A stretch of 64,000 nucleotides of DNA from Amoebophrya sp. A120 (taxonomy: Eukaryota > Protista > Dinoflagellata). The translations under genes were made by a program, and so were the position numbers. Where the stretch lies: positions 1,488,001 through 1,552,000 of the forward strand of contig CAJINV010000008.1 of NCBI GenBank assembly GCA_905178155.1. Reading direction: 5' to 3'. Positions 1 to 49,311 of the stretch are shown piece after piece. The notes under the pieces are model-generated. The model saw only the letters and a list, made by a program, of their open reading frames with translations. It had not been told where the DNA came from and ran no database searches. Positions within the stretch are counted from its first letter, which is position 1. Every line of letters starts with the position of its first letter.

Positions 1-3000
1 ATCGTCGCACCAAGTCGAAGGAGCCCTGGCACATCCACTCCATTCGAGGACAAGTCCTTGGATAGTTTGATGCAGAAAGCTATGGATTGCAAAAATAACT
101 GGGTCTGGAAAGTTGGAACTTGTAATGCTGGTCTTGCATTCATATCAAATCTGTATTGCATGACCAACAAAGGTGGTAGCCTCTCATGTCAAACAAAAAC
201 GCAGTTTCTCATCCAGAGTTCGTATGAGAAAGCGTGCTGCAACCTTGTCATGCTTTCCTGCATAAGGAAGTGACTCCTTCTTGCACATTTTAGCATCACA
301 AAGTTCCAGACCCAGACATATTTGCAATGCATAAAAGCTTCGTTTCTGCAAGACGAAGACGCGGAGGCGGACGACCGCAGCCGCATTGTGCGCACGCGTC
401 TCGAACACCAAAAAATCGCCGACGAGATTAACGCGGCCAATTTAGGTTGGAAAGCGAAAGTGTACGACCGCTTTCTCGACAAAACCCCACGGGAGCTGAA
501 TTTGATGTCAGGCCGCCGCGCGGGGCTCTTCCCCCGGCAGAATCGGAACACATTGCAGAGCGAAATTACGCCCGACACCGATTCGGTATTTCCGCAGCCG
601 CGAAAGGTGTTATCGGGTGCACTATGGAAAGGAAGGCAAAAGTAAAAAGTACTGGAACCGTGCTTGCAGTGCTGACGTTTCTTGCGCGGACGTCAAAATG
701 ATCGTTGCAATTGGTGCAGCTGCACAAGCACAACAAAGTAAAAGTTTGTGCTCTGGCATAGTAGCAGAAGTTGTGTGGAAAGTACGAAGATCGGCCGATA
801 CAAAGACAATAACAATCACCGAAAGATCATGAAAGTAAGAAGTGCTCGCACTTCAGTTGTTGGTCAACGCAGACTCCTCTTTCGAACCGCATAATAGTCA
901 CCGAATCTGAATCAAACAACGCACAGAGCTTGTTCAAAAAAGTCCTTACTTTCCATAGAACTCGCAGCACATCCAGAATCTGGCGCTTTTGCAGGAAGAA
1001 GCGAATGGATCCGAGCTCCTCTCGAAAGCGGCGGCCGCCGCAACGGAGAAGAAGCGGGCACTTCCGAAGCAGTTCGACTGGCGCAATCCAAACGACGGCG
1101 GCCACCCGCTCATCGTCACGGAAGGCATCAACCAAGGCAACTGCGGCTCTTGCTACGTCCTGTCGGCGACGCAGGCGCTCAACGCCAGGCTGCGCGTCAA
1201 GAAACTGCGGGAATTGAAGGCCAAGGACGCAAGCGACGCGGAAATCCACACGGCGCTCAAAAACAGCCAGAAGTTCTCCTACGAACATGCCCTCGGCTGC
1301 TCCGAGTTCAATCAAGGCTGTGATGGCGGGTACAATTCGTATTTTTGTATAATCGTGCAGGTGGAGGTAGGTACAGGTAGTGGTTGTGCAAGGGCTACAC
1401 CCAAAAAATGTGTACGTACTTGATGTTCCTTCATCTAGGTTGTGCGTGATTTGTGCTTTTTCTCTACTCACGACAAGCCCGCATTTCAAGTTATGGAAAT
1501 TCTTCTGACATCGTATTTGTATTTCACTTTCAGAGTTTTGAAAAAGTAAAAGATAGTAAATGGCAATGCATGAAGGAAGCTGAGTAGATCAGCCCAAAAA
1601 TTTTTCCATAATCAACCAAAGAGCCACGACTTGTCTTATCTTGTACGAAACTCTCAGGTACAGCCACCTGTTTGGTCAGTGGTCGCGGTTGTTTGGCCTG
1701 GCGCCCGCAGACGAGGAGTGCACTCCGGAGGGCGGATGGGGCGACGGTTCGGAGTGCAAGCCGATCCCTGCCTCTTGTCCGCAAGAGAAGTATCCACAGT
1801 AAATTTCCCGTACGCGTACAAATGCTGTCTCTGCATGACAACCTTTTTTTCCAATCCTATTCAGCATGACAAGTGGCATCCGAAGCTGCTTGCGGCGACG
1901 GTGCAAAGGTTTTTGATGTGGTGCAGTCGGGTATGCATGACAAGTGGCATGCTCCAACTTACGAAAATTTCTCAAGCATTTTGTACATGTACAGGAAATT
2001 TGTATTGCATAAGAAGCTGAGGTACCGCACGAAGGACGTCCACTACGTCGGCGTATCAAAGCCTCAGAATGGAAATCCTCAAAGTGGAAATAATTTGCGA
2101 TGCATGAAATGCAGGGCAAAAAAGACTGTATTGCAGAGGACGCAATGGAGACCGACCATTGTCCTGCTAGGGGTGACGAATTGGAGTGCTGCTTGGCACG
2201 AGAGAAGGGCACCACTTTGCCCCAACCTGCATGACAGACATGCTTTAAGGGCCCGGAAAATTTGTCATGCGCCGACTACAAATGGCGTCTGAGCTGGATT
2301 CGTTTTTTGCATTACAAATTATTTCCACTTCGAGGATTTCCAACCTGAGGTTTCATACGGCGGTCGCTACTTCTACTCGGACGAGGAAAACATCATGCAG
2401 GAGTTGTACGACAAAGGACCCTTTGTGCTGGGGTTCGAGCCCGACAACGCCTTCATGTACTACGAGAGCGGGATTTACGGCAAGACCCGCGGCATCGACT
2501 CCCTGCACCATTCGATGGACCCAAATTGGGAAAGAGTGGATCACGCGGTGGTAGAACAAGCTGAAGCTTTGCACCACTTCTATGCTATAGTGACTGTGGT
2601 TTGTTTGCCTCTGGCCCTGGTGTTCATGATCTTTTAGCTTTTTATCTGCAGGAGCGTTAACAAGATCAGATGTATTTGATGATTGATAATTGGCCTATGA
2701 TGACGGCTCCGAAGCGCTTTGTTGAGTCGGGTTGCGAGCAGCACGAGCAGCTGCGATCTTGTAAAAGATTGACCTAGTCTGTTGAACTACATCGCAGTAA
2801 CAATATCCAGGTTTTGGTCGGCTGGGGCGAGGATTCGAGCGGAACGAAGTACTGGGTCCTGCAGAATTCGTGGGGCGACTCCCTCGGGGATGGTTGGGGC
2901 GAAACGGATCCGTACCTGAAGGAGGCGGATGCGCCGGTGCGCACCGGCTTTTTCCAGATAAAGCGCGGAGAGAATATCCTGGGTATCGAATCTATTGCCG

Positions 3001-3071
3001 AGGCGGCAGACGTCGAGGAGCTTACTGCCGAGCAAGCGGAAAAATCGATCAACTTTATCAGAGAGGAGTAG
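1..3071 (+). CDS. Cathepsin C / dipeptidyl aminopeptidase (DPAP)-like papain-family cysteine protease, 5' end outside window; exons approx. <1-80, 339-585, 995-1329, 1658-1790, 2017-2053, 2363-2550, 2811-3071
   Basis: Motifs LPKQFDWR, NQGNCGSCY (catalytic Cys), CSEFNQGCDGGY, YVGGRY..IMQELYDKGP, DHAV-VLVGWG (His), LQNSWG (Asn). Three GT-AG introns plus three introners join in frame. Confidence 0.9.
81..333. mobile_element. Introner, family F1 (TIR ~TATCAAATGCAAAAATGTCTGGGTCTGGAA)
   Basis: TAT...ATA ends, imperfect TIR, 5-bp direct repeat AAAGC; removal gives MQKASFLQ in frame. Confidence 0.85.
1791..2011. mobile_element. Introner, family F4 (TATCCACAGTAAATTTCC)
   Basis: DR AGAAG; removal gives PQEKLRYR. 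Confidence 0.85.
2054..2357. mobile_element. Introner (TATCAAAGCCTCAG...CTGAGGTTTCATA; F5-related)
   Basis: DR CGGCG; removal gives HYVGGRY. Confidence 0.85.
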
Positions 3072-3427
3072 TATAACCGCGGTCCTCGCAGGGTTCTTGA
3101 GAGTTGCGGAAGATGAACGGCACGGCTTTTGTTGCTCTTACTTCTTCAGTACAATTTCCTTAGTAAATTTTTTCTAATCAAAATGCAGATGCGAAATCTT
3201 CAGTTCTTGTCTAAGCCACTTCTGTGTAGGTCGTATGCTGTCTTCAATTCTGAACAGTTGCAACGCAGGAAAGTTGTACAAGACCCAGTCTTGCTCTGGT
3301 TGGGCTCAGTGGCCGCGTTGACGAGGCAGCTTCCATTTCTATCTAACTAAGAGTCGGCACTTACTTTTTGTTTTTCTAGACTCTATCTAGCAGTGGCGAG
3401 GGGATCTTGTTTCTTCCTCAGAATTTG

Positions 3428-6400
3428 AATTGAATGCTAACATGATGACAAAACCCAAAGTACAACACATAGCTGGACGAGCGAGTTTGTGGCGCGACGA
3501 CTGGACCTGGTCCTGGTGAGGTGGCCCTCAAGTTCTCCTTCGGAAAAACTAGGCAGCTCTGGTTCGGAGAGCAGGGCGTCAGGGCTCAGGGACGCGGGTT
3601 TGGCTCCCTGGCAGGCACGGCAGGACTGCATCTTTATTATCATTCAAGGATACGGAAGGAATAGGAAATGGTAAAGGAATAGGTAAAGGATGGACATCAT
3701 GGTGGCAGGAGGAGTACGGCGGTTTGCTAATGCTCGCGCGCACGGTCTGGCTAGGACTAGGAGGTCAGCGCAGAGCTTTTCCTTTTGACTTCTGACTTTT
3801 CTGCTTATGATTTCTTATTTCTTCGCTAGGGGGTGGAAGCACTGTGGGTGCTGGCTAGGATGACAGAGCTCGCATTTCGCGGCTTCGGTGGTACATACGG
3901 GCTAAGTTAGCGAAGGCTTCGGAGGCAGGCTACTCACCTTGTCACACATTCAGTGGCATACCTGGCACAAGGAACCAGAGGCTTTTTTATCTACGGACAG
4001 GGCAGTCCCTGACGGCTGGCTGGTGCAGGGCTTACTTACTCTCTCGCAGGGCGTGAGGCTGCAGGATTTACATCGACTTAGGAAGGGGCCCGCATGGTAA
4101 GGCATTAAGCAAACACGCTTCGAAGGTAGGGCCAGGGACAAGAATCAGGGAACAGGCAGGCTGCAGAGATAAGGAGAAGGACAGGACCTGCTGTGGGGCA
4201 TGACGGCTGAGTCCGTGGCTATTTTTGGTGGCGTCGAATTCATGGCGGAGGGAAGTTGCTTTGGGGCACCAGGGCGCTACTAGGAAGTTCGAATGAGACG
4301 GGTTAGGACAGCCCGGTAGCTCCGTTGATTGTTTACTCCAGGCACGGACGACGCGGATATCGCAGCAAGGTTTCGCTCAGTCAGCTGCCTGTTGTATTGA
4401 GCAGGACCCGAGGGCTCTTGCCATGAGGTTCCTCGCTGCTAGGGGGTCTACCTTTCCCGGGTCAGGAGGGGGCCGCGTGCCATTTTTTTGCGCGGCGCAA
4501 GTTCGTTGTACTTTTAGGGGCTGTTGTATGCCTCGGATTCCAAGTCGAAGTCCAGGGCGCCTTGGCGGCTCTTAGGTTGTGGTGCGCCACAGTCTCCTGT
4601 TGATAGGTTTGCTCGGATATCTCCTTTACTGCGTTCGGCAGGCTGCACTACCCTCTGGCTTCCGGGTGTGTTATTCCGGCTATGATTTGGGTAAGGTCTC
4701 TTTCGCATTTTTGGGCGGCGGCTTTGGCGATCTTCTCCGCGGTACTTGTCCGTGTTTGTCACTCGGGATGCTACGTTCGTCACTAGCTCGGGTCTGAGTC
4801 CATTTCCACTTCCGTCGTGTTGCACTAATGTCTCCGAAAGGCTTCGGAGGTCGCGCTGCTCCCTGTTGGTCTGCTTCCTCACTTAGGGGGTCAATTTCGG
4901 GTCGATCGGCGTCGTTGGGCCCTGGGTAATATGGGCAAGTCGGCTTTAGTCCCTTCACTTTTATCGGAACTGGGGGCCTACCGGGTTTACGGCGAGCGCC
5001 AGGAGGTGCGCGCGGGTGCCACTTGTTCAAGTGGTCTATCATGTGCCGGGATGTAGGCCTTGTCTGGGGGTGTAGTTGTTCTCTCTCACCGTGCCATCCC
5101 TTGTTTATTTTTGGAACCCCAAGGCACGGTGGTCAGCGGTGCTACGGCTTACAGGTTGAGGTATGGACCCGTGTAGGACGTCAGCGTCCTGGCTCAGTTT
5201 GCTGTTTGAAACATGGCCGGGCCGTTGAGCTATGAGTGCGGCGCGCTGGTTATTCAAATTGGTTCCGCCTTTGCAATTCTTGTCCAGCACCACCAGGAAT
5301 GGGTTTTTGCGGGCTACCGGGACTTGGGGCGCGACTCGTTAGCTATAGGCTGCTACGCCGATGGCCTTCAGGGTGCTCGAGGTTGCGTCTTTGACGGTTT
5401 TGTATCGAACGGTTGAGGCGCTTTTGTTGCTTTTGGCCTTGGAGGATGAGGGCTAGCAGATCCCTGGTAAGCTAATGCACGGCGGCACGACTGGACCCGC
5501 ATTCGAGGCGGGGGTCGTGCCATGGTTCTTAATTTTCTTTCGATCCCGCCCACCCACCCGGTGCGCTGTTTCCTCGTGCCCACGTGGTTTTCGTGGTGAC
5601 AGAGGATACATCTTGGGAGGGGCCTTGAGACATCCCTGGCGACTGTCTCTACGGTGAGGGACCGAGACGCCCTTGCCCTCTCTCCTCCGATCACGCCATA
5701 GGGCGTGTCGGGTGGCTGGTCAAGTTCGATAGGACGATAGGAACGAAGCGAAATTGAATGCTAACATGATGACAAAACCCAAAGTACAACACATAGCTGG
5801 ACGAGCATATGATAGCTACTGCTAGCTGACACAATACAATAGTTTTGGTCTGCCTCATATGAGCTAGCTGCTAGGCCGGGGGGGCGGCCTGGTTTTAAGT
5901 TAAGCCACCTGTGCTCGGCTGCGTGTGGGCCCTCTGTGCCGGCGATTGGGGTAGGTCGTGAGTGGGACCTGTATTCTAGAGCGCTGGCCGACGCCCCTCC
6001 CCCGGCTAGTGCGGTAGCTCGGGCAGAGGGGGAGGGCGCACCCGCGCCAGACCCCGGCGGCAGGCGCAGCAGTAGGTAGGTCGGGCAGGTGATGCTAGTG
6101 CAGCACCTGCCCTCCCTGGTCGCCGGGCAGGTGTAACACTTGCCCGGACCGGAGGGATCAGGGCAGTGTGGTGGCGCGGATCAGCCGCGCCACCACACAA
6201 CGACAGCAATAGGTGGACCGGGGAGACCGCCTAGCCCTGATTTGCGCAGGCGGCCGACACACCTCAGGAGGCAGGCCGGGCAACCCAACACTGGCTCCCG
6301 CCGGCCCGCCACTATCCTGGTAGGTAGGTCGGGCACTTGGCCTAGCTGGCACCGGTCGGGGCCAGCTACGGGCCGTCGGAGCCAGGCCCGGAAGGCCGGG

Positions 6401-9400
6401 CTTGTTTTCTGATCGCCGCCAGCGACGCACAGCCCAGACCCGCCGTCTGGTAGGTAGGTCAGGTAGGGCGCGGCCGCGGAACTCGAAGCGCCGCCAGCTC
6501 CACCAGCCAGAGGGCGGGGGTAGGTAGGTCGGGCGCGTTGCAGTCCCCCGGCCCGGGCCACTTGCAGTCAGCGGCACATGGTAGGTAGGTCGGGTAGATG
6601 GGTCGGGGACCTATGACCCCCGCCAGCCACAGAGGTCAAAAGGCAACCGGGTGGAGTAGGTAGGTAGGGCTAGTGCGGAAATTTTTTGGCTTCTGTTGGG
6701 CGCCTCTAGCTGGCATCAGCCCGCCCTACCTACTGCACGGCATTGCCTGCATGTAGTTGGCGCCAGTCGGAAGCGAAGCCTCGACCTTCCCGACCTAAAT
6801 GCACATAAGTAGGTAGGTCGAGTAGATCCGGGAATGTTGCCTAGCGGCAGGCAAGGGCCGCGCTCCATAGTAGGTAGGTCGGGCGGGTCGGGGATCTCTC
6901 ATCTGCGCCACCCGCATACACAGCGACTACTAGTCGCTGGCAGTAGGTAGGTAGGGCAGATCGGAGATCATCTCTGACCCGCGCGAGCTAGCGGCGCCGG
7001 GCGGAAGTAGGTAGGTAGGGCACGTCGGGACTTGTTGAAAGGGAAGGAACCTGCTAAGAGATAGGGCGGGCCGTAGGTAGGTAGATGGGCGCCCTGTGAT
7101 CCGCACCAGCTACGGAAGCTAGTCACTAGTAGGTAGGTAGGGCGGCTCGAGACCTATGCTCTGTGGCAGCTCGGCCGATAGTAGAAGGTAGGTCGGGTAG
7201 CTCGCCTCGCGCTGAGACGTGCATGACTGTGGCCGACCCGATGACGGTAGGTAGGTAGGAGGGTAAAGTCACGGGAGGAAAGACACTACGACCACGCTCG
7301 AGGTAGCTAACGCCAATGCCATCTAGTTCACAGCATCGCCGTACTTAACTACCTACCGACCTACCGAAAAGGGCCTGCCGGGTCTGGCCTATTGCTAACA
7401 TGATGACAAAACCCAAAGTACAACACATAGCTGGACGAGCGAGTGCGACACGTAGCTGGCTACCTTTGAGCCCTGCGGCCGCCATCCCGTTGCCCCGCAC
7501 GCCGACAACACTCGCCGCCCCTCTGGGGTTAAGGAAAAGGCAAAAAAACACGAGCGCGGTAAGCTCTGGAGAGGGTTTGCCTGCGATGAGGTAACTGCCT
7601 TCGCAATATTGCGCTGGCAAATGCAAAGCACACGCACGGCGCGGGCTAGGGCGAAAAAAAGACGCTCCGCCCGTTCGCAAACGATGCCGCGGCCTCTTCC
7701 GTGAGTTCCTCTAGAGGCTTGCCCTTCCCGTCTTCCATAGACCCCCATTGTGGGCTGCGGTTCCCGACATCCTGGCAAGCCCCACGTCGAACGCACTCGC
7801 CTCTTGCTCATTTCAGAAAATGAAAGGCCGGATCCACCCCCGGACAAAAAAGAAGCAAACGGCCTTTCGGCTACCCCTGAAAGGCCTTTTTTGGGTACCC
7901 CTCGTAGCATCGGGGGAAGCGCAAAAAAGGGCGTTTTTGGCTACCCCTCCTGGGTACCCCTCCCGGAGGGGTGACACGAACAAGACATCAGGCCAAGAAA
8001 CACGTTTTGCAGGAGTGCGAAAGCACCAGTTGCGCGCCGTTTTTGTCAGTGCCCGCAAGCCTCGCGGGCGAGGCTGTTTGTTCAGTTTTTCCGCGGTGCT
8101 TCGCGGCGCAGCCGGGAGCCAGCTCGCAAAGAAGCTTTGTGCGCTATGTAGATGCAGCCGGTTTCGGGGTGGTGCGCCTGAGCACAGAAGAACGGCGCCT
8201 GGCCCGTATGCAGAGGGGACTCGCCACGCTGCGTCCATGTGAGTCCCCCGGGGGTGTCTTGCGAGTTCGACAGCCAGCGCCCCCCGAAGGGACGAAGGGT
8301 GGGCACAGTGGCTAGCGTCCTTCCCATCGTACGGTGTCCATTTTTCATTTGGCACTGCATCGACGCAAGCAGGGGGCAGAAGCTCCGGGCGACAAGAATT
8401 CTCCCCGCAGACTCTGTCGGGGCAGCCCCGCCAAGGTCCGCGCATTGCGCCTGCTTGCTGGCACAGTCTCCGGACGTGCCCGGCGTAGCTCATAGGCTCG
8501 GCGTGTGTATTCATCTAGCTAGCTTCTTAAGCATGACAAAGCGACCAAGAGCGCGTCGCGACCTCATCAGAAACGCTCAGCGGAGCTCTATGACGCCCCG
8601 TGAGGACCCTGAATTTTTTTTCCACTTTTGAGAAATCCGTACTTAGTATCGCCATAAAACCAAAAGTACAACACATAGCTGGACGAGCGGTGTGTAGCTG
8701 CAAGGCTTTGCCGGAAGGTGGCTGCCCGAGCCCTCCTTCCGGCGCCCTCCAGGCATTCTCTTGTGGGGTGTTTTAAGTCGTCGTCGATGTGGCGCCACGC
8801 TAGGGCCAGCTCGGAAAAGGAAGGGCATTAGGTCCGCGCCCGGCTTCGCATAGGCCAGGGCGCAAGAGGTTTCGGGCCCTGGACAAGCAAAGCCAACAAA
8901 GCTGAGCGCCTTCGCCGTGGTTCGGCAAGCTGGTTGCCCTTCGTGAAGTGAAGCGCCTCAACTCCGGCCAATTTTGTAAAACCCGCCCCCGACTGCGAGG
9001 TGGCTCGAGGCGGGACAAATGACACGGCCCCACGTGGATGCCAGCATAGGCAGGCTCCTCCCGCTTCGGCCTCTGGGGCAGGTAGGTCTGCAAGGGTTGA
9101 GCGGCCTCAGCTCAGAAGGGGGCGATGGGCTTTGCCTTCAAAGCTGAAGTGCCTCGGGTCTGGCCATTTAGAAGAAAGCAGCGTGAGGGCCGGGGCCGTT
9201 TCCGGGTTGGGACGAGGGGCGCGTGGGTTCCGAAGCATGTGGCGTAGGTTTGGAAGGATGGGGCCCGGGCTCCGGATGAGGGCGCTTGGGCTGTGGAAGA
9301 AGTGGTCTGGGTTCCGCGTGAAGGGGGCCGGGGCCCACAGGAGAAGACCTGGCTCAGGGAGTAGGCGGCTGAACTTGTAGAGGAGGTGGACTGGGTTGGG

Positions 9401-10370
9401 AAGGAGAAGGCTCGGGCCCCAGGGGAGGTAGCGGGGGTTGGGGGAGGAGGTAGTTGGGGCATCTGCTGGCGCTAGTGCAAATTTTCCGAGAGCCTAAATA
9501 CACAACAAACTGCTGGTGCAATGCTCACATGAATTTCCGAGAGCCTATACATGATGACAAAACCAAAAGTACAACACATAGCTGGACGAGCGGGGTTTGT
9601 TGAACATGAAAGTGCCGCGCTAGAATCGCGGTCATCTCTTTCACGGACCACTCTTCAATCTCATGCGGCTGCGAGCCCATGTTTGAGTGGGCTTCTTGGT
9701 GTTGGGTCCTAAAGGCCTGAAGATAAGGGCCTCGACAGCAGGCCGCTTCCCTTTAAAGCCCTCGAGGCAGAGTCTCTGGGGCAAAACTCCGGGTGCGGGA
9801 CAGCTCTCTACAGTGGGTGGCGCTAGCGGGGCTGGTAGGGGTACCTCAACACGGGAGGGGCCTGCCACTATATACACCAAAAAGACTCACTTTCTATGGT
9901 TCTTGGCTACTTGGATTGCGAATCTGTCATGCTAATTATGGTCTATTCTGAAACAACCTCAAATCAGGTTCACCGAAGCACTGCTGTATTTGGACACCGA
10001 GGATAAGGCCAAGCTCGTCAACCGACTAGGACTTCATGTACGTACAGAATCCCCTGGTGTTACGAGGTGGGGCCAGAGTGGTTCATCCTGGTCTACTGCT
10101 GGTCGCTGTCCGGTTCCGGTCCCGAGAATATAAACTACCTGCCTCCTTAGCTACTTAGTTAACTTGAAGCAACCGTAGCTAGATTATATCTACATAATTT
10201 GCAATACAAACATCAACCGACATCAGGTACCGCGGGGTTCGACAGCTCAAATATTTTTTTACTTTTACTAAGAAAAAATTCGGTGTTTTTTCGGCATATG
10301 TGTAACAGATACAGTTTTTTTCTTCGATAAAACCAAAAGTACAACACATAGCTGGACGAGCGAGTGCGAC
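3428..10370. repeat. Array A: six direct copies of a 33-55 bp joint (core AAAACC(C/A)AAAGTACAACACATAGCTGGACGAGC) at 3428-3482, 5752-5806, 7393-7449, 8656-8689, 9549-9592, 10327-10370, separated by unrelated 0.7-2.3 kb segments
   Basis: Copies read directly; core identical except one position; intervening segments show no evident mutual similarity and no recognisable intact gene. Confidence 0.9.
6071..7366 (+). repeat. Periodic array of (A/G)GTAGGTAGGT(C/A)GGGC motif with unique spacers, period ~55-75 bp
   Basis: Copies at 6071, 6319, 6449, 6519, 6580, 6655, 6808, 6869, 6942, 7006, 7072, 7128, ~7185, 7246; inverted copies at ~6723 and ~7348. Confidence 0.9.
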
Positions 10371-26708: not shown

Positions 26709-27567
26709 ATGATGTAATCGCTTTCTTTTTCTTTTCCGACAAGCAGAATGAGGCAAAGGCTTGCTCTTTCTGACGAGCAGCTGTACTTTTTTCTATGATT
26801 TTATTGTTTCTGGCCAAGAAAAATGTCCCCCTTGCAATTTAGGGCAGCGCAAAAATACTGCATGTATCGGGCAGTAATACGAGGAAGTACCTCATATGTT
26901 CTTGTTAGTCGCTGGTCGTTTTCGTCAACTGGTGTCCTCCGTCATTCTCGTTCCCGTTCGTGTCCTTAATATACAACTCATAGCGCACCATTGTACGTGT
27001 CCTGGAGTTGGAATATGAAGTTCCAGTAGAAATCATTGGTGAACACGAGAGTCCGCGCAAACGTAACGGAGTCGTCGTCTGTATTGTATGTAATTTGTGC
27101 TTGTAGTTTCGTATGGTCGCCACGACTCGAAATCCACATCGCAGAAGAACAAGAGTGTGAGCCGACGAATCGCATAAGATTTCAGGAGGAGATCACGCGT
27201 GGACCACGACAACTGATATTTATTTTGTCCCAGAAGACGATGAGGCCCCGCCCCACACAAGCACTGTAGAAGTTTTACTTTTACCTGCTAAGCATCGAAA
27301 ATACAATATCAAAGATCTAAAATCGGCAGTGCCGCGCTTCCCCGGTGCTGCTGCGCCGGGGCGGAGGAGGAGGCCCGAGGCGGGCGGGGTCGGCAGCTTG
27401 ATGAAAATGCATTCTTCTCCGAAAGCATCTGATAAAAATCATCCAGCTTTTCCAGCGACACAATTCCCTTACATGCCACGCATTACAGGTTTTCTCTGTC
27501 TTGTAGAGCAAATTTGTGATGCTGTCGACCAAAGATAGGTGCACTAACACAGTTTTTTTCTTGGATA

Positions 27568-28007
27568 CAGGCCACCGAAAAAGCAGTTTCCGGTGCCGGA
27601 AGAGGGGTCCAGGGATCCGAATCACGAATGGACGTTTCAGTATCAAATGCAAAAATGTCTGCGTCTCGGAGGATGGAACTTGTGATGCGTCCTGTGGGTT
27701 ATACAAAAATCTGTGTTGCGTGATCACCAAAAGTTTTCCTTTTTTGACCAACATGAGCGGGAGTTTCTCATTGCAGGTTCAGCATGATAGGGACTTCGTA
27801 GAATCCGTCATGCTAGGTCCTGCATTCCAGACCTCATGGGGCATGGAAAATATGCATGACAAGTCTGCATTCTTCCAGACCCAGACACTTTTGCATTTGA
27901 TAGTCAGACATTAAGGGACTACGACGGGGACAAGAACCGCATGTACATAGGAGTCTGCGGATTGGTTTTCGACGTACAGGAAAGCGACAACTTTAGGCCG
28001 GATTTTG
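27568..28007 (+). pseudogene. Fragment of a cytochrome b5-like heme/steroid-binding (MAPR-type) gene
   Basis: After introner removal: EWTFQTLRDYDGDKNRMYIGVCGLVFDV; no start or C-terminal half evident. Confidence 0.7.
27641..27902. mobile_element. Introner F1
   Basis: TIR; DR TTCAG/GTCAG. Confidence 0.87.
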
Positions 28008-28432
28008 GTATTTTATTCTGAATAGTGTGTCGTCCTCGTCAGTGCTGCTCCGACTAATTATTTCGCATGAAGTTTATTGTCATCCCTGTTTTATTCGTAG
28101 GCCCACGACATGATCATGATGCGAAGATCGATCGTCTCAATCTCAATGTAGCTTCACCAAGGATCACGAATTACCGGAGAACGAGGAGCCGCTAGATCTG
28201 GTACAGCTACGACGAGGACCCAGCAAAACAAGATCAACCTAACATCTGAGGAACCAACCACGCAACAAGAATCCTCGTGGATCCAGGCGAAGCCAAGTTT
28301 CAGCAGTACGAGAGGGATTGTCCCGCAGTTGTTATCTGGACAGGTGGCAGGACGAGCTCAGCAAGCACATGGGGCGAGTAAAAATGGATTGCAGGAGCAT
28401 GATGGGGGACCTGCTCAGCTTCTCGGTGGTGC

Positions 28433-28717
28433 TATGCTGAGTAAAAAAGTACCCACACCAGAGTCAAGATGGGGATTTTGCAACACAAACCTTGATGAAG
28501 TTTTGGGAGCCACGCATGACAAATTGCAGGCTGTATTGTAATGCAGTTTAGCAAGGGAAACCGCATTACATCAAACTTATCTGCTTATCCTGTTTACAGC
28601 ATTACAAGTTCCAAAACACAATTGGAAATGGCTCTCATGGGGATGCGCATTACAAGTCTTCCTGGTTTTGCAAATCTGCATTACAACTCTGGTGTGGGTA
28701 CGTTTTTACTCAGGATA
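28433..28717. mobile_element. Introner F3
   Basis: TIR; DR GGTGC. Confidence 0.87.
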
Positions 28718-28831
28718 GGTGCAGATGAGTTCCCGCAGTTGATGCAGTGGATGAACATCATAGCGCCGGCACTTGAAAATGCATTCTTCTCCGAAAGCAT
28801 CTGATAAAAATCATCCAGCTTTTCCAGCGAC

Positions 28832-29870
28832 AGTACCGGGTTGTCGTGGATGAACACCGTCATACGGTATCCTGAGGAAAAACGTCCCCAACCCGTAGTT
28901 GTCATGCAGATTGGCAACGACAAGCAAACTTGTGATGCGCATCCCCATGAAAGGCGTTTTCGATCGTGTTTTGAAATCTGTGATGCTGTACACAGGATGA
29001 GCAGCTGGGTTTGTAATGCGGATGACCTTGCTAACCTGCACTACACTACAGACGGCAACTTGTCATGCGCTACAGCCAAAACTTCTGGATTTGTGTTGCG
29101 AGATCCCCATCTTGACTCTGGGGTGGGAACGTTTTCACACAGGATATCCGGATGGAGTTCATCATGTCCATCGACATGGAGCGGAGCGCCGGGTTTTCCC
29201 TGATGTGAACCTCACCCCGGACATTCCCGCCAATGTTCATGAAAAGTAAATCGGGATTGCTGTGCAAAATAATCGACGTCCGGTCTTGCGCGGTGACCCC
29301 GATATAAGCGAAGTCCAACGTTGTGGTGGTGGTCGTGGTCGTTGTCGGGGGTAACGTCGTGCTTCCATCATCGGAATTCGACTCAAACACCACCAAGCTC
29401 GGACCGGAAAGGGTTGGTGGCCCCGCCGTCGCGAGCAGAACTTGCCCGGGGCCGGCGACAACCGCCGTTTCGGTTGTCAACAGGTTCCCGTCTCCGTCTC
29501 GCTCCCCCACTCGCGGCCAGTCGATCGGCGGACCGGTTCGTGGCGTGTTGAAGAAGTTCGCTAGCGGGTTCAGGGAATTCCCATACGCCATTAACAAGTA
29601 CTGGAGCTTCATGTTGTTCGTGATCTCGATGTTGTTGCTGATGTAGGTGACTCGGGGGAAATTCATGCTGTTCGCGATCGGGTTCGACCGCGTGATCCAT
29701 CGCCGGGTGCTGTACGTATACTGCCCGAGCGGATTTTCCGCCGTGGTGAAACCCATCTGTGTAGTTGTGAGAGCACGAGGAGAGGAGGAACCTTGTTGTT
29801 CAAGTCCAGGCTGACCACCACCACCGTCTTCAGATTTATTGTTCTTTATTTCATCTGGGTAGTGCGTCCG
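28832..29870 (-). pseudogene. Internal fragment of a Thr-rich, probably surface, protein with L-domain/beta-solenoid-like repeats (I.NN..L, I.ENP.L, IHDNP.L)
   Basis: Open minus-strand frame that continues across an introner; truncated at both ends by array B joints. Confidence 0.55.
28868..29146. mobile_element. Introner F3 in a minus-strand gene fragment
   Basis: DR TACGG/TCCGG; removal gives NSIRMTVFIHDNP. Confidence 0.85.
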
Positions 29871-30055
29871 ATAACCCGGCTCCGAAAGCATCCATAATAG
29901 TCTTCTCCGAAAGCATCTGATAAAAATCACCCACCTTTTCCAGCGACACAATTCCCTTACAAGCCACGCATTACAGGTTTTCTCTGTCTTGTAGAGCAAA
30001 TTTGTGATGCTGTCGACCAAAGATAGGTGCACTAACACAGTTTTTTTCTTGGATA

Positions 30056-30495
30056 CAGGCCACCGAAAAAGCAGTTTCCGGTGCCGGAAGAGGGGTCCAG
30101 GGATCCGAATCACGAATGGACGTTTCAGTATCAAATGCAAAAATGTCTGCGTCTCGGAGGATGGAACTTGTGATGCGTCCTGTGGGTTATACAAAAATCT
30201 GTGTTGCGTGATCACCAAAAGTTTTCCTTTTTTGACCAACATGAGCGGGAGTTTCTCATTGCAGGTTCAGCATGATAGGGACTTCGTAGAATCCGTCATG
30301 CTAGGTCCTGCATTCCAGACCTCATGGGGCATGGAAAATATGCATGACAAGTCTGCATTCTTCCAGACCCAGACACTTTTGCATTTGATAGTCAGACATT
30401 AAGGGACTACGACGGGGACAAGAACCGCATGTACATAGGAGTCTGCGGATTGGTTTTCGACGTACAGGAAAGCGACAACTTTAGGCCGGATTTTG
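30056..30495 (+). pseudogene. Second copy of the MAPR/cyt-b5-like fragment
   Basis: Duplicate of 27568-28007. Confidence 0.7.
30129..30390. mobile_element. Introner F1 (duplicate of 27641)
   Basis: Same sequence and flanks. Confidence 0.87.
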
Positions 30496-30920
30496 GTATT
30501 TTATTCTGAATAGTGTGTCGTCCTCGTCAGTGCTGCTCCGACTAATTATTTCGCATGAAGTTTATTGTCATCCCTGTTTTATTCGTAGGCCCACGACATG
30601 ATCATGATGCGAAGATCGATCGTCTCAATCTCAATGTAGCTTCACCAAGGATCACGAATTACCGGAGAACGAGGAGCCGCTAGATCTGGTACAGCTACGA
30701 CGAGGACCCAGCAAAACAAGATCAACCTAACATCTGAGGAACCAACCACGCAACAAGAATCCTCGTGGATCCAGGCGAAGCCAAGTTTCAGCAGTACGAG
30801 AGGGATTGTCCCGCAGTTGTTATCTGGACAGGTGGCAGGACGAGCTCAGCAAGCACATGGGGCGAGTAAAAATGGATTGCAGGAGCATGATGGGGGACCT
30901 GCTCAGCTTCTCGGTGGTGC

Positions 30921-31202
30921 TATGCTGAGTAAAAAAGTACCCACACCAGAGTCAAGATGGGGATTTTGCAACACAAACCTTGATGAAGTTTTGGGAGCCA
31001 CGCATGACAAATTGCAGGCTGTATTGTAATGCAGTTTAGCAAGGGAAACCGCATTACAAACTTATCTGCTTATCCTGTTTACAGCATTACAAGTTCCAAA
31101 ACACAATTGGAAATGGCTCTCATGGGGATGCGCATTACAAGTCTTCCTGGTTTTGCAAATCTGCATTACAACTCTGGTGTGGGTACGTTTTTACTCAGGA
31201 TA
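30921..31202. mobile_element. Introner F3 (duplicate of 28433)
   Basis: DR GGTGC; 3 bp shorter than the first copy. Confidence 0.87.
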
Positions 31203-31316
31203 GGTGCAGATGAGTTCCCGCAGTTGATGCAGTGGATGAACATCATAGCGCCGGCACTTGAAAATGCATTCTTCTCCGAAAGCATCTGATAAAAATCATC
31301 CAGCTTTTCCAGCGAC

Positions 31317-31562: not shown

Positions 31563-32959
31563 AAGCGTAGCACACTTCTATCAGCATTATCAGTGGGAAC
31601 TAGGTCTTTCAACCCAACCTCCCAATTTTCCGGGCAAGCGTTACCGTTAGTAACTTTCCCTCCCCAGATTTGCATGCCCCAGACGTTTCTCATGTGCAGC
31701 TCCACCAGGAGCATAGTAATCTAGTGCCGTTTTGGACTTTGACGTCAAGCCAGAATCAAGATAACGTGATCGATTTGCGATGTGGCTGCACTAGCGAACC
31801 ACGACTACACTGGGAGCCCAAGCCTGGTGTCATGCGTAACGGCTAAGCATTATCGTCGATTTGCGTAGCATAGTGTAGTAGTTTTCCTCTGCATAGTGTA
31901 GTACTATCTGCAAGGCGGGGACGTAGTTCTTACTGGGAATAAGTCGCCCGGCCGCGTCATCCCCGGCCGCACGTTGCTCTTTTTGTTCCGCATGGTATTC
32001 CTCTAGCTTTACAGAGGTCGCAGCAATCTCGCCGGATATATAACACCCCTGCCCTTGGTCGAGATGTTGCGCTACCCGATCAATGCATACCAAGCAGAGT
32101 TGTAGATCACAAACAGTGGGGCCGTGCGCAGCCGATTGCGCGCTTCGCTTGATGATATGAAAAGTCGCATGTTTATGTTTTTAGACAGAAATATCGAGCA
32201 TCGTCTTCAACGGATTTACTACTACTGGACTTTGTACAGAAGCGATCATGTAGAGCTTGTGGCTTACAGATACAGCAAACCGCTCGCAAACAATATAAAT
32301 CAAAAACATTTTTTGAAGCAAGTCTGAAGAAAAAAAAACACAAGAAAGGACAACAGCCTGGCTGTTGCTAACGCCGTCACTGCGATGACGAATGCGAGAA
32401 CTGCGCTCCATTACCTCGTCCAGAAGCGTAAGCCAACCCCTGTGATAGAAAACGTAGAAAAACATCTGATATTCATATATCGTATAGTAAAAAACGACGA
32501 TGAAAACGGGATAATATCCAGCATCGTAGGATGCTGGATATTATTTATCAGACTTTTCCAGCTGGAAAAGGTGGATGATTTTTATCAGATGCTTTCGGAG
32601 AAGGTGTAAGTAGAAAAACATCTGAATACACATTCATCTCTGCAACAGTCTGACCGCCATCCAGGTTCTCCATCAACACCTTCTCAAGGATTCTTCGGCT
32701 CCACGTCGTCGCTGAGGCTGACGCCTTACGACGTGCATGATTATCCTCCTGACCCAGTGCGGCAAGGTCTGAACAGCGCAAAGAACGTGCGAACTACGCA
32801 AGAAAGAAAAGGCGAAGGATTTTTGCCGCAGGGCTTCGTGCTGGCAGTTCCACTTGCCCCATTGGCACGAGTACGAGAAGCGCCGCAGCACTCGTGTGGA
32901 CCTTGCTTGACCACCGCTTCCGCACTGCATCCGGCGGATAAACCACAGAGGTTGTCAGC

Positions 32960-35825: not shown

Positions 35826-35974
35826 TACTTACTTCTTCTGAGAAGGAGCGATAATCGCGGCGGGCTCGACGCCGCATATTTCTGAACAAGAAGAAGTGCT
35901 CCCGTTCGTCCTTTCCATCGCCGTTCACTGCATGGGCATGGGCGATTTCTTGTGACAGCACGAGATGAATGGCG

Positions 35975-36990
35975 ATGATGGCCTCCTGCAACGTCTTCGT
36001 GTTCGTGGTAGTACTGGCAGTACTCTCAAACCCCGGGTGGTTCCCGTGCTGCGTCAGCAAGCATCATTACCGTTGTCCCGTGCATTCGGCGCGGCGCCCA
36101 TCAGAAGTTATCCGCCCTTCTGCTCACTGCAGTACAGCCCAGCAGACGCAAAATTGAGCCACTTCATGCGCATCGTATCCATTGGCGTTTGATGTGTTTC
36201 GGTTTCCGAGACGAGAATATAGAATCCGAATGTCGAAATGCGTGCGCACCAATGATGAATATCCGTGCAGCCCTCTGCCAAGAGAAAAACAATGAAGCGA
36301 ACGCTACTTGTAAGTACTTTTACAAAAGATAAAAAAATAAGATGAGTTGGGAAAAAAAACGACATCAAAATAACGAAAAAAAGGATCATGATTCAACGTT
36401 TCTTTGACTATCGTTTCTTGTTCAGCTGTAGCTGTTTTCAGGTCCTCGCTCTATCACAGAAATGTCGACTTCGTAAGATTCGTAAAACATGGGAGTGATG
36501 GAGTAGTCGCGACGGGCAGAGCTATTCTGATGAATAACGAAAAACACGGAGCGGCTTGGTGAGAGGTTGGAGCGTAAAATAAATGTTGCAGACGCTAAAT
36601 CTGTACGTGCTTCTGCTTGTGTAGTGTTGTCTCAATACCAGGAACGGGGAAGAATTGTGACGAGAGACGAGTGGTGATGGCCGCCTGCAAGAACCTTGTC
36701 GCGTTCGTGCCACTGATAGTACTCTCAAACCATAGGTGGTCCCCGTTCTACGTCTGCCAGCAGTCCCATGCATTTGGTGCGCCCATCAATTCTCAGTGGT
36801 TTTCCGCGCTTCTGCAGTACAGCCTACGAGACGCAAAATTGAACCACTTTATGCGCGTCGTATAATTGGTGTTTGACTTTATTGTGTTTCCGATGGTATA
36901 GAACACTCCGAATACAAAAAATGCGTGCGCAATGATAAATATTTATCCGTGCCCCCTGCTGGAGAAAAACAATGATGAAGCGCGTACAAA
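35975..36990. repeat. Degenerate dispersed repeat: ~35975-36310 resembles ~36670-36990; ~36420-36640 resembles ~53515-53705
   Basis: Shared blocks GTACTCTCAAACC, CTGCAGTACAGCC..GACGCAAAATTGA, CAGAAATGTCGACTTCG, GAGCTATTCTGATGAATAACGA. Confidence 0.7.
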
Positions 36991-38966: not shown

Positions 38967-39319
38967 TGCCAGCGTATGCTAATGTTCCAACGATAAAATG
39001 CTCAACACTCGCTCCAGAATGATAAAATCTCAATGCTATAAAGATCTCAACACAACAACAAAACAAGAACACAAAGAGAGAAATAGCATTACAAATCCAA
39101 GCATGAAATCGTAAACAGCATTACAAATTCTATGAAGATGCTGACGAATGGAATTCCCATGGACCCAATGCACTCCACAGGCCTTGAGTCATACAATTTG
39201 CATGCCAAACTACTAATTTCCAATTGTAAGAAGAACATAAATACTCTGCTACATTTGCATTACATTCTGGTGGTATTTAGTGTTCAGCATTCGTTTGCTT
39301 TGGTTCGGGATTAACCACA
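38967..39319 (+). repeat. 5' LTR (TG...CA)
   Basis: Colinear with 49325-49677; 16 mismatches counted by eye. Confidence 0.95.
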
Positions 39320-39321
39320 GA

Positions 39322-39333
39322 GTTATGAGCCCA
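39322..39333 (+). promoter_or_regulatory. Primer binding site GTTATGAGCCCA, complementary to the anticodon arm of initiator tRNA-Met (half-tRNA priming as in Drosophila copia)
   Basis: Lies 2 nt after the 5' LTR; resembles the copia-type PBS GGTTATGGGCCCA. Confidence 0.8.
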
Positions 39334-40441
39334 AACCGTTTCCACTAGCGAAAAATAATTTTTTAAGCGCAAGGCATTTTTTATCTATTTGCTTAGCACG
39401 TCGTAAGTAACTTAGCAAAAAAACGTGGAATATTTGTAAGGATTTTAAACTATAGCGAGCAAATCTCTGATGCATATTAACGACGTTTATTTTTTTAGCT
39501 CGGAACTTCAGCGTGAGTACGTCAATTTCAACACATTTGCACCAAAACTTCTGCAATAAACGACAAACCCGCATTACAAAAGGCAACTTTTCCCATATAT
39601 TTTTGCTGGAGCTGTGTCGTAGACTTTTAAACTTCCAGACACCAAAACCTGCATTATAGACGAAATGTTTTTTTTTGCATACAACTTATTACTTCCTGGC
39701 TTTCGCTCCGGATAACATTTTTTTTTGCACAAACACGATCGTACTACGAACACGAAGCATTTAGATGCATAGAGGCCAACTGTCCACATATCAACCGAGA
39801 AAAGAACTGCACTTATCTCAAATTACACATGTACATTGCTACCGACATAAATACTTTTCAAATTACCTGCACGCGCACGACCTAAGTCTTTCCATGCAAT
39901 TTTTTTTTTGCAGCCGATCGCTGTTACTTGGCATTTTAATTTTAAAAAATAATTACCATATCTTGACGCGGGAAAACAGCTCTTATTTTTATTTTTTTTT
40001 ACTTGAACCGCCGCAAGACAACGGCGGCAGGGTTTAGAATTTTTTTCAGCTTTGGCGACCGTTTACGCTTAAAAATTGTCGATTTCTGTCTTCACGTCGA
40101 GCATTTTGAACGAGAAAAAGCTACAAGAACTACGAAAAATCTGTCCTTGCCGTTTACGCTTAAAAACTAGCGACGCTAGTTCCTTTCTAGCTGAGACGCG
40201 CCTAGCAGCCAGAAAACGGGCGCACACACTACCAAACCCCTCCGACTGGCCTATTGCCGAGATATCCAGTTTTACGCGCTGAAAAAGCTACATTCTTTTT
40301 TTGTCTTTCCTATCGCATTCACACGACGGGACTTTTTTTTTTTTGAAAAATCATTTTCGTTTCTTCGCTCTCGCGCAACACAGAAATAATTATCGCGTCT
40401 TCGCCCTCGCGCAATACACATTCAAACTCTATTGGCCAAAA

Positions 40442-41626
40442 ATGCTCGCGCATTGCTTGACCGCAAAAACATCATCCCCGGCGGGTTGGTCCAACGATCC
40501 CGGCGCGCCTACACCCCTGGCCAATCCGGATGACAATCCGGATGATGAGCAGTGCGAGTATTCCTGGGAACGTACAGCCGCGGGAGAAGAAGCAGAGCGG
40601 CGCCGGCAGGTCGCGGAACAAGACCGCCAAGAATTAGCGCGACAAGCGGCCAGAGAAGAGCACGAGCAGAAGCAGCAGCGTGAAGCCGCTGCAGCAGAGC
40701 GCGCGCGAGCAGCAGCGGCAGAAAAACAGAGAAAGGAGAAACAGCAACGCGACGCCGCTGAGTTGCGTGAACACCTGGAACACCAGGCCCGGGAAGAAGC
40801 GAGGAGGACCCGGGAAAGAGAGGAAGCAGAGCAACAAGAGGCAGAGAGGAAGGCAGCGGAGGCAGAAGCAAGGCGTGCGGCGGAACAGCAGCGGCAGAAA
40901 CAAAAACAAGAAGAAGAAAAACGAAAAATGGAGGAAATAGCCGCGAGGATGGACCAACAATTTTCGTTCGAAGAACATCGGTTAAAGTATATCCTGGGCG
41001 CGGACGGGAATTATAAAATAAATCCTGACCACACGGAGTCCGGTGCTGACGCCACGACAGCAGCAGCACCCGCGGGCACCACAGCACTGGCAACCGGCGT
41101 CAGCACAACACCACCGGGAACAGTTGCAAAAGCAGTACCAGCAGCAACAACTTCGACTCTAACCGCCCCAGCAGCAACAACTTCGACGATTACTGCACCA
41201 GCAGCAACAACTTCAACTACTGCTGCACCAGCAGCAGCAATTGCAACTACATACGTAACCACTGCGACTGCTCCTGATACGCAGCAACAGCAGCAGTTGC
41301 AACCGCAACAGGTTTCGGAGCAGAAAAATAGTCTATCGCTGGTGGACCCGGAACAGCCGATAACTGAAGCTCAACCTGTCCAGCACTCCTTCGCTCTTGG
41401 GTCCGACGGAAAGTGCTACCGCATCGACTTCGGGACAAGAACAGCAGCAGCAGTGCCACAGGCGCCGAATTCGATGCTGCAACAGCGGCGAAATTTATTT
41501 TCCACCCCCCAGCACCAGGCTCAAGATCATCGGGGAACTTTGGAGCATGGTGCTAGTATCGGTGAATGCAAGTTTGATGCTGGGGAACAAAAGTCTGACG
41601 CTGATTCCAGATGGCGACGCAAGTAG
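40442..41626 (+). CDS. Retrotransposon ORF1 (coiled-coil plus Ala/Thr repeats; probable gag N-terminal part)
   Basis: Open frame from ATG 40442 inside the element, overlapping the polyprotein start by 16 nt. Confidence 0.6.
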   Translation: MLAHCLTAKTSSPAGWSNDPGAPTPLANPDDNPDDEQCEYSWERTAAGEEAERRRQVAEQDRQELARQAAREEHEQKQQREAAAAERARAAAAEKQRKEKQQRDAAELREHLEHQAREEARRTREREEAEQQEAERKAAEAEARRAAEQQRQKQKQEEEKRKMEEIAARMDQQFSFEEHRLKYILGADGNYKINPDHTESGADATTAAAPAGTTALATGVSTTPPGTVAKAVPAATTSTLTAPAATTSTITAPAATTSTTAAPAAAIATTYVTTATAPDTQQQQQLQPQQVSEQKNSLSLVDPEQPITEAQPVQHSFALGSDGKCYRIDFGTRTAAAVPQAPNSMLQQRRNLFSTPQHQAQDHRGTLEHGASIGECKFDAGEQKSDADSRWRRK

Positions 41627-48291: not shown

Positions 48292-49311
48292 AGAAAAGAA
48301 AGAAAAAGAAAGTGAAAAAGAGGAAAAGGAAAGAAATTGAAAGAAGCAGAAAAGTGAAGAAATTGCTGATGATTCTGACAATGCAAAGCATATCTTCGTA
48401 GAAGCTTCAAACAAATTATTGGCTACTTGTATGATTTGAAATGATGAAAACTATTCGCATACGTGTTGGTCGGGGAAGCCTATTCTCCACACCTCTCAAC
48501 CGGTAGTAGGTCGATTTCTGCTCGACAGCTTGACGCTGCGCAGTAATGATGCCGAAGCAAGACAATTCGAATTTCCGATGGGTTTTGACACCGATCCGAA
48601 AAATTTCAAGTGGATTCGAAGGAGGAGGAGAGAAGATTTGGAAAGAGAAGACTAAAACAAAGTAAAACTTTTCGAGAAAACAAAAATCGAAAATAAATTA
48701 CTACCTCCTACTTTACTACGGATTATAAAAGAAAAAAGATTTCTATCTGTCTGGAGCTCTACATTGGTTTTCAAGAAAAATTACACAACCAAAAATTTAC
48801 GAAAAAGGAAAACTTTTATGACAAAAAGACCACGTAAGATTATGACTATTTCGCGCTAGGTAATTCTTCTATTTTTCTCGAAGCTTCGAGTGTGAGATGT
48901 TGTATGATTGTTGCTTTGATCTCGATTTGGATTTTCTTTCGATTTGAGAAAAGAATTATTAATGTTGTACTACCCCGAGAACGCTAATTGTATGATGAAA
49001 AAGAAAAATGTATGATGAACAAAGACAAAACTTTTCACCACGTATTTTTATAAAAGCATTACTTTCCAAGCCTAGAACTCAGAAATGCTCTATCGAAAAC
49101 AAGAACTACTTGTACGATTTACACCTACGATATAGATTCCAAAAGTCTATACGTAGGGGGGATAAACGGTATAGCAGCAAAATTCTACGTATAGACTTTT
49201 ATGGTATTCAAAGCAAAACTTTTTCACTGATTTTCAGAAAGTAACATCATGGATTTTCAACACCTATACTATTTCTACTCCTACTGTAGTTTCCAAAACT
49301 GGCCGAGTATC

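Follow-up and report, generated by a model that had tools for sequence, protein, structure and literature searches.

How does a single site in a genome come to hold five unrelated blocks of DNA, each separated from the next by a copy of the same short sequence? The question is posed by a 64,000-nucleotide stretch of the assembly of Amoebophrya sp. A120, a marine parasitic dinoflagellate (GCA_905178155.1, contig CAJINV010000008.1, positions 1,488,001 to 1,552,000), which we call the window and number from its first letter. Near its start, a short repeat, the joint, occurs six times in one orientation and encloses five segments, the cargos; together they form array A. Most likely, array A is a tandem hotspot of mobile elements, a long-duplication variant of a known pattern. 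For its mechanism we favour, at about even confidence, repeated copy-in by an enzyme of the Penelope or non-LTR (long terminal repeat) type that acts in trans and duplicates the site each time. By depth the joint belongs to one locus, the cargos are at least partly multi-copy, and three of them end in family termini that abut the joint.

Six joints and five unrelated cargos

The 33-bp core of the joint was matched exactly six times, always on the plus strand (at 3450, 5774, 7408, 8656, 9559 and 10329), with no match in 100 shuffles. Successive cores lie 2324, 1634, 1248, 903 and 770 bp apart. An initial annotation, made from the letters of the window, had pointed out both the six same-orientation copies and their shrinking spacing, and both hold. 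The left-to-right drop in cargo length (Table 1) has a chance of 1 in 60. One base of the joint varies, being C in copies 1-3 and A in copies 4-6.

Around the core, the joints are ragged, as had also been noted. Measured from the right end of the core, joints 2-6 reach 55, 48, 33, 43 and 33 bp to the left; for joint 2 the value becomes 52 bp if the AAT shared with the end of cargo 1 is left out. To the right, joints 1-5 are identical to the right host flank over 4, 0, 9, 1 and 1 bp. Beyond the extensions first described, partial ones occur upstream of copies 3 (15 bp) and 5 (10 bp) and downstream of copies 1 (4 bp, GAGT), 4 and 5 (1 bp each). Read as target duplications, the joints give lengths of 56, 48, 42, 44 and 34 bp. 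A TAGCT motif lies within the first 25 bp of three of the five cargos and also in the joint; no priming model was obtained from it.

The cargos are mutually unrelated. A single 15-bp match (E 0.7) was found among the ten pairs. The block is not one ordinary transposable element with internal repeats. None of the cargos matches the rest of the window, its introners included, and 0 of 90 cargo frames of at least 50 amino acids reach the Pfam cut-off (three weak matches, E 0.012-0.045). The description of the cargos as dissimilar to each other and free of introners and intact genes was therefore accurate; that of a composition unlike the flanks applies to four cargos (GC 0.56-0.63 vs 0.49-0.52) and not to cargo 5 (0.49). 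The codon score lies above shuffles on one of ten cargo strands (cargo 1 minus, z 3.3), on a scale where genes score z 5-10, yet the minus strand of the right flank also reaches z 4.7. A cargo-1 frame found no homologue in the ESM Atlas (best score 0.79), and a homology search with another cargo-1 frame was empty.

Contigs of public sequencing runs bear on the array. Runs X1 and X2 behave as genomic DNA, with X1 depth flat at 41-44 over unique introns and flanks; they represent one sample, which may be the source of the assembly. X3 and X4 are taken as RNA on a program's guess. The contigs listed comprise 16 of 30 pieces for the joint and, for the cargos, 24 of 212 pieces and 18 of 60 loose ends.

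We consider it exceedingly improbable that array A is an assembly or adaptor artefact, made of alleles or library adaptors collapsed into one array. Such an origin would be in keeping with the fact that no listed contig covers the entire array, and that with joints of at least 33 bp the order of the cargos is beyond the reach of a 31-mer graph; the junction of cargo 4 and joint 5 is not among the listed pieces. However, at most junctions there are short-read contigs that lead from cargo or flank into the joint for 21-37 bases, and some of these come from the runs of a second study. A single-copy contig of 1171 nt reaches from the left flank 37 bases into joint 1, and an X4 contig leads from joint 3 into cargo 3 (7420-7714) without differences. 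The junction contigs of cargos 1, 2, 3 and 5 match the depth of single-copy flank (42-51 vs 41-42), and a splice links the neighbouring gene to cargo 5 across 6.8 kb (see below).

The joint behaves as host DNA of one locus

In X1, joint contigs have depths of 140 (48-bp C form) and 106 (A form), compared with 42-51 for single-copy contigs. The corresponding values in X2 are 82 and 54, compared with 24-33. Contig depth is, by the program's own warning, not a copy number; the joint depth fits about three copies of the C form and two to three of the A form, all of them accounted for by the array. In line with this, the five listed loose ends of joint contigs, 5 of 5, are contexts of array A itself. 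Since the six array copies explain the depth of the joint, the joint is host target DNA and not the end of an element. The case that this target DNA is confined to the array locus is strong, if not final.

The same evidence bears on models in which the joint travels with the inserted DNA, either as an attachment site carried by each element (accretion of the tyrosine-recombinase or integron type) or as an element terminus. Tandem accretion with ragged repeats is known from bacterial islands at tRNA ends and resembles array A, and an element-borne GAGTGCGAC, the nine letters at the right end of joint 3, permits 17 of the 120 insertion histories considered below. Against this stand the joint depth, which fits six array copies, and the other copies of cargos 1, 2 and 5, which end in flanks other than the joint. 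Nor was an RNA gene found at the site: Rfam gave only two chance matches (E 1.8 and 2.7), and ARAGORN found no tRNA. An element-borne attachment site is largely refuted, and we hold this explanation to be very improbable. One-ended rolling-circle capture, which had been among the initial proposals, is unsupported with the joint as element end, because the depth of the joint fits array A alone.

The cargos are at least partly repeats of the host genome, three with family termini on the right

All five cargos are at least partly multi-copy, and cargo contigs reach depths of 147-484. Other copies of cargos 1, 2 and 5 share the right-hand end base and then run into unrelated flanks, stopping at 5753-5754, 7391-7394 and 10330, respectively. 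Wherever other copies can be followed beyond the right end, the flank differs from the joint. This combination of a common right end with unrelated flanks means that the joint is best read as a long target duplication. The right ends of all five cargos are AT (chance about 3e-5), and the printed ends show no poly(A) tail at cargo junctions. No terminal inverted pair was present among the best 25 of 107 matches listed, longest first.

The five cargos differ in how their repeated parts are distributed. The interior of cargo 1 is single-copy (contig depth 42.7 over 3494-5478); its right end is high-copy, with nearby contigs at depths of 147 and 254 and a fall in depth from 528 to 122 after 5754, and its left end is shared with at least one other copy. 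A relative of cargo 1 that is 1728 nt long was also seen. The most repeated part of this cargo holds a 38-nt stem-loop (5484-5521; summed depth up to 1691 at 5483), 11 bp of which recur at the left end of the cargo (3497); taken as a whole, however, this region has a fold that shuffles equal. Cargo 2 contains at least 14 TAGGTAGGT(A/C)GG motifs, 55-75 bp or multiples of this apart. It has loose ends at 7391, 7394, 7050, 7339 and 5995, and some of its other copies begin at 7050 or 7339. In cargo 3, contig depth is 83.7 over 7835-8170 and 41.7 over 8257-8683. The family of cargo 4 is represented by contigs of depth 452.6 and 483.9, with loose ends at 8687 and 9483. It continues at least 668 bp farther left, where cargo 4 is shortened at 8687 with short microhomology, and its members diverge in their course after 9483; the last 65 bp of cargo 4 are not family consensus, and a 14-bp repeat is found at 9483/9534. 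The left part of cargo 5 has a contig depth of 44.2 (9563-10143), and its right loose ends lie at 10298 and 10330 in X3 and X4.

The suggestion that the array serves as an archive of invader DNA is unsupported, because the cargos consist, at least in part, of the host's own repeats. Exact-pattern searches found no match for the joint in metagenome and viral contigs, for the cargo-1 hairpin in metagenomes, or for patterns from cargos 2 and 4 in viral contigs, and a BLASTN search of 50,697 phage records with the array was likewise empty. These searches are insensitive to diverged DNA and could miss a remote foreign origin. Nothing supports foreign cargo or an archive function, and array A is likely not such an archive.

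Insertion history

Chance cannot account for five hits within about 20 bp: in a genome of 115 Mb, the expected number of such clusters is 1e-5 even at 50,000 insertions. The order in which the cargos could have arrived was considered under a serial model, in which an insertion can duplicate no more than is present in the joint that it hits. Strict one-at-a-time insertion in one lineage fails, as none of the 120 orders gives the observed edges. Because cargo 3 requires the right extension of 9 bp, it must have arrived before cargos 4 and 5; cargo 4 in turn needs a 43-bp left extension that is missing from the 33-bp joint of cargo 3. The four array orders permitted by the C/A variant also yield no history, so assembly misorder does not explain the failure. 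Taken separately, cargos 1-3 have three consistent histories and cargos 4-5 have two, and this trio and duo meet where the joints change from C to A. The history is repaired most simply if two haplotypes, each with its own insertions at the site, recombined in joint 4. Other repairs that work are a later 10-bp trim of joint 4 (20 histories) and the element-borne 9-mer mentioned above. Repeated acquisition at one site through serial long target duplications, one of the mechanisms originally proposed, is the best reading.

The failure of the serial order calls for either two-haplotype recombination or template jumping. In iterated template jumping, which we regard as possible and rather doubtful, one or two events would suffice. 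A reverse transcriptase (RT) alternating between the 3' ends of element RNAs and the top strand of the target would be primed at the target, copy an element RNA, jump to the exposed 3' end of the target, copy 33-52 bases, jump to a different RNA and repeat. This would remove the problem of the 120 orders, as each joint would be copied from an intact site. The model predicts fixed right and variable left ends for joints and cargos alike. The right edges of the joints are indeed nearly fixed (+4, 0, +9, +1, +1) and the left edges variable (52, 48, 33, 43, 33); among the cargos, right ends at family termini are seen in 1, 2 and 5, and the left end of 4 is truncated. The model also accommodates the 65-bp stutter with which cargo 4 ends, and for R2 and L1 a jump from cDNA onto the target DNA has been proposed (PMC2912911; this and the other papers cited are drawn on for the portions available). 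On the other hand, a single event should leave joints of a single sequence; the split into C (copies 1-3) and A (copies 4-6) would therefore require two events or later conversion. Another copy shares the left end of cargo 1, and no published case of target copies interleaved with several templates was among the literature matches listed, in the portions available. The initial idea of an adaptor templated at the junctions lives on in this form, as the main rival to the reading we favour. The failed serial insertion offers a sharp test between haplotype recombination and iterated jumping.

Taken further, an Amoebophrya polymerase, so far undescribed, might write concatemers into breaks, with target copies of 33-52 bases alternating with element RNAs that end in AU; we offer this as a speculation that is probably wrong. 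If true and general, a single sequence-independent enzyme that reads a 3' dinucleotide would mobilise much of the unclassified repeats and leave duplications of 30-60 bp.

A proposed hotspot that renews its own target

In the copy-in mechanism that we favour, a retrotransposon-type enzyme supplied in trans would cut the two strands of the target 34-56 bp apart, and a non-coding element would be copied in at the staggered cut, thereby duplicating the site. Every duplication retains the 33-bp core in full, so that with each insertion a complete target would be restored and open to the next one. The elements would lie on the plus strand, with complete 3' ends on the right (AT) and 5' truncation on the left, as in target-primed reverse transcription. 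Left shortening is seen for cargo 4 (8687) and for two other cargo-2 copies (7050 and 7339), and 5'-truncated L1 copies have been described with short microhomology (PMC2912911). Recombination in joint 4 would then have joined two haplotypes, one of the C form carrying cargos 1-3 and one of the A form carrying cargos 4-5. The array may have been tolerated through splicing to an acceptor inside cargo 5, which removes most of it.

Several observations, besides the failure of the serial orders, speak against this mechanism. No empty allele was seen, and we therefore infer the duplication. The copy number of the joint rests on contig depth from one sample, X1 and X2 being the same. Overlaps of 30 letters or fewer seem not to have been placed, which makes the lack of foreign flanks on the joint, taken alone, weak evidence. 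No relic of an RT or endonuclease was found in the cargos (90 frames against Pfam; homology searches with cargo 1). The cargos have neither poly(A) nor shared sequence, and partners mobilised in trans normally have a common end. In a 3841-nt X4 contig, a left-truncated copy of cargo 2 has no long duplication in 30 letters per side, so long duplications are not obligatory for this family. Moreover, the duplication edge beside the conserved element ends is the more variable one (standard deviation 8.6 vs 3.7; F-test p 0.06), the reverse of sequence-specific first-strand nicking. Finally, cargo 4 departs from its family consensus at both ends, and the right end of cargo 3 is single-copy.

Another explanation is capture during break repair, in which loose cDNA or DNA is used, with no dedicated enzyme, to patch a recurring pair of staggered nicks or a site of fragility where the last exon begins. 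The cargos are unrelated, cargo 4 is a fragment, and cargos 1, 3 and 5 are partly single-copy. Locus-unique 46-bp duplications without a mobility gene are described in bacteria (PMC2853133), and the cargo of a second array in the window is gene-like and carries introners. We nevertheless consider this explanation unlikely: three cargos end exactly at family termini and five end in AT, which points to an enzyme reading element ends. In addition, the reconstructed empty site, like the joint and the cargo ends, folds no better than shuffles.

Rolling-circle copy-in by an HUH enzyme, similar to that of Replitrons or Helitrons, would start from the conserved AT end and produce variable stops and variable duplications. 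Each element has one conserved and one ragged end and a mosaic interior, as this would predict, and Replitron-1 and some Chlamydomonas Helitrons have a fixed orientation and variable target-site duplications (TSDs; PMC10288648). However, the precise end of Replitron-1 abuts the fixed TSD edge, whereas here the fixed edge abuts the ragged end. Within the TSAR group, Replitron proteins were found only in stramenopiles, according to the available part of the same paper, and end hairpins in six cargo segments are no better than shuffles (z -1.0 to +0.8). We judge this route unlikely as well.

The array lies in the 3' untranslated region of a protease gene

Array A begins about 360 bp 3' of the stop codon of a gene for a papain-family, cathepsin-like protease (Table 1). 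Downstream of this stop, contigs of X3 and X4 contain a splice from 3148 to 9968, with 28 and 30 letters on the shorter side, which places the array in the 3' untranslated region (UTR). The 6819-nt intron takes out joints 1-5, cargos 1-4 and the left half of cargo 5. Its acceptor at 9967 lies in cargo 5, and 9968-10328 and joint 6 stay in the spliced 3' UTR; X4 contigs of the retained part have depths of 255 (9968-10362) and 223. Most of the array is thus probably spliced out of the 3' UTR of the protease gene. A CAG at 3421, preceded by a pyrimidine tract, may, judging from the letters, have been the original acceptor.

Elsewhere in the window, a BBS9 exon has 98% identity to an Amoebophrya sp. 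A120 protein (next match 55%). A homology search with the coiled-coil gene downstream gave no match.

Table 1. Array A and its gene context (window coordinates)
Feature	Position	Strand	Remarks
Open frame with last coding exon of papain-family (cathepsin-like) protease	2778..3071	+	Peptidase_C1, E 1.7e-5; stop at 3071
GT-AG intron, 6819 nt, in 3' UTR	3149..9967	+	3148 joined to 9968 in contigs of X3 and X4
Pyrimidine tract and CAG, candidate original splice acceptor	3405..3421	+	sequence only; just upstream of target
Joint 1, C form	3428..3486	+	continuous with left host flank; 4 bp (GAGT) beyond core
Cargo 1, 2268 bp	3487..5754	.	single-copy interior, high-copy right 300 bp, family terminus at 5754
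Joint 2, C form, 52 bp	5755..5806	+	AAT at 5752-5754 common to element end and target
Cargo 2, 1586 bp	5807..7392	.	multi-copy element; some other copies left-shortened
Joint 3, C form	7393..7449	+	48 bp plus 9 bp (GAGTGCGAC) identical to right host flank
Cargo 3, 1206 bp	7450..8655	.	left and middle low multi-copy; right 400 bp single-copy
Joint 4, A form, 33 bp + 1	8656..8689	+	C/A boundary and serial-insertion break both here
Cargo 4, 859 bp	8690..9548	.	internal piece of high-copy family
Joint 5, A form, 43 bp + 1	9549..9592	+	1 bp beyond core
Cargo 5, 736 bp	9593..10328	.	single-copy left part; right end shared with another locus
Joint 6, A form	10329..10370	+	continuous with right host flank; single-copy contig from 10341 onward

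Other repeats in the window

The second array (27402-31316) lies about 700 bp 3' of a second cathepsin C gene. Four copies of a 47-59-bp joint (at 27402, 28774, 29901 and 31259) separate cargo B1, present twice (99.6% identical), and cargo B2. Its joints resemble those of array A in having fixed right and variable left edges; similarity between the two joint sequences is not beyond chance. Introners are present in its cargos, the minus strand of B2 is clearly coding (z 17), and B2, joint and B1 can be read through in frame. The second array may have arisen by the process behind array A, here working on gene DNA, or by a local rearrangement of genes. A fifth, inverted copy of its joint (32561-32603) is part of a 140-bp insert between 16-bp direct repeats (32454-32625), which also contains a fold-back. 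Another insert, of 237 bp between 19-bp direct repeats (50126-50400), consists of a partial tandem of 122-bp period, ends in (CT)n and looks like a non-LTR or Penelope-type insertion.

A Copia-type LTR retrotransposon at about 38967-49676 (open reading frame 41605-48291) interrupts an F5/8 type C gene. It has LTRs of about 350 bp that are 96% identical, an apparent 5-bp TSD, and protease and RVT_2 matches. Its polyprotein contains, after the protease (43900-44700), an exonuclease III/AP-endonuclease-like domain (best PDB match an exodeoxyribonuclease, E 4e-5; no Pfam match). We know of no LTR element with such a domain, no search for one having been made. At 35962-36975 and 53403-53708 there are two dispersed non-coding repeats of about 320 bp with 69-72% identity, one located between copies of the other. 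At 61545-62945, a tandem array of about 30 units of 17 bp is followed by 146-bp repeats and GC-rich sequence up to the end of the window; this region is possibly part of a large repeat.

Comparison with known systems

In the literature searched, which covered few subscription papers, we found no array of this type described for any dinoflagellate, Amoebophrya included. The A120 genome contains 23.8% repeats, mostly unclassified, together with LTR and non-LTR retrotransposons, and putative transposases were reported in strain A25 only and none in A120, as far as the available text of that study goes (PMC7789003); the available supplement text gave no match to six transposable-element terms. The locus gives the exact right ends of three families, the terminal dinucleotide of all five and an unusually long duplication, and these ends and the duplication length may serve as genome-wide handles for finding the mobilising enzyme. 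The introner described for Amoebophrya has terminal inverted repeats of 8-20 nt and direct repeats of 3-5 nt (PMC7789003). The cargos differ from it in having no terminal inverted pair among the matches listed and no match to the introners of the window.

Canonical Helitrons insert at AT/TT without a TSD (PMC10288648), in contrast to the 34-56-bp duplications here. Replitron-1 of Chlamydomonas is more similar, with its copy-in mode, fixed orientation, one precise and one fuzzy end and a variable TSD (PMC10288648). The RG-target rule of Replitrons, however, does not describe array A, where the fixed edge, after ...GAGC, abuts the ragged left ends. Replitrons, which encode a Y1 Rep (HUQ) transposase, have short direct repeats at both termini; in a scan of cargos 1, 3, 4 and 5 that was limited to repeats of at least 10 bp, none stood at both ends. 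In integron and tyrosine-recombinase systems the attachment repeat travels with the element; the joint, by its depth and the unrelated flanks, does not. The bacterial insertions with long target duplications (PMC2853133) share with array A a locus-unique duplication of about 46 bp without a mobility gene, but they are prokaryotic, single and carry restriction-modification genes, as opposed to five eukaryotic repeats.

Among retroelements, the CRE clade of protist non-LTR elements (CRE1/CRE2, SLACS, CZAR) targets spliced-leader RNA genes with TSDs of varying size (PMC12278014, PMC3636483), and array A is similar in its variable duplication and repeated use of one position. The CRE/SLACS-type origin initially suggested does not hold in the strict sense. 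The target is the 3' UTR of a single locus, where the best Rfam match has E 1.8, and the cargos have relatives at other loci. CRE elements generally have poly(A) ends, which are absent here. They use an RT and a restriction-like endonuclease, encoded in the element or in a partner; in the cargos themselves, 0 of 90 frames reaches the Pfam cut-off for either domain. Long TSDs are known from the long interspersed nuclear elements R9 (126 bp) and Dualen-4b (median 900 bp; PMC9977147), which, like array A, far exceed the usual 5-20 bp. These are described, in the portion available, as single insertions, unlike the several unrelated non-coding elements at one site here. The Penelope-like elements Naiad and Chlamys have variable TSDs, partial tandem ends, tail extensions of 30-40 bp and non-autonomous partners, and Penelope-like elements can carry intron-bearing host genes in trans (PMC8557442). 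The cargos show no clear pseudo-LTR; the only candidates for partial tandem ends are repeats of 14 bp, where cargo 4 ends, and of 11 bp, within cargo 1. The microsatellite target of these elements is also not present at array A. Neither a motif scan nor Rfam detected a hammerhead core in the cargos, a feature of the canonical Penelope clades that Naiad and Chlamys lack in any case. Autonomous Penelope-like elements encode a GIY-YIG endonuclease and a Penelope-type RT.

The closest parallel is found in trypanosomes. Tandem retroposons (ingi/RIME, L1Tc/NARTc, TSIDER1) are separated there by nothing but the TSD, which is attributed to independent insertion at the same target (PMC3820030), and RHS genes are a hot spot with one or more elements (PMC7563717). 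As in the ingi/RIME/RHS tandems, the elements of array A stand head to tail with only a copy of the target between them. The trypanosome TSD has a fixed length of 12 bp, compared with 34-56 bp here; the trypanosome elements share a 5' signature of 76-79 bp and poly(A), whereas the cargos have only the terminal AT in common; and the RHS target is a multigene family, as opposed to one locus. Array A works like the trypanosome tandems, and differs in at least one tested feature from each named family for which a test was decisive. It suggests a simple route to a hotspot, in which a duplication that contains the whole target renews that target with each insertion. What sets array A apart are the long and variable duplications, the five unrelated cargos that end in AT without poly(A), and the departure from a strict serial order.

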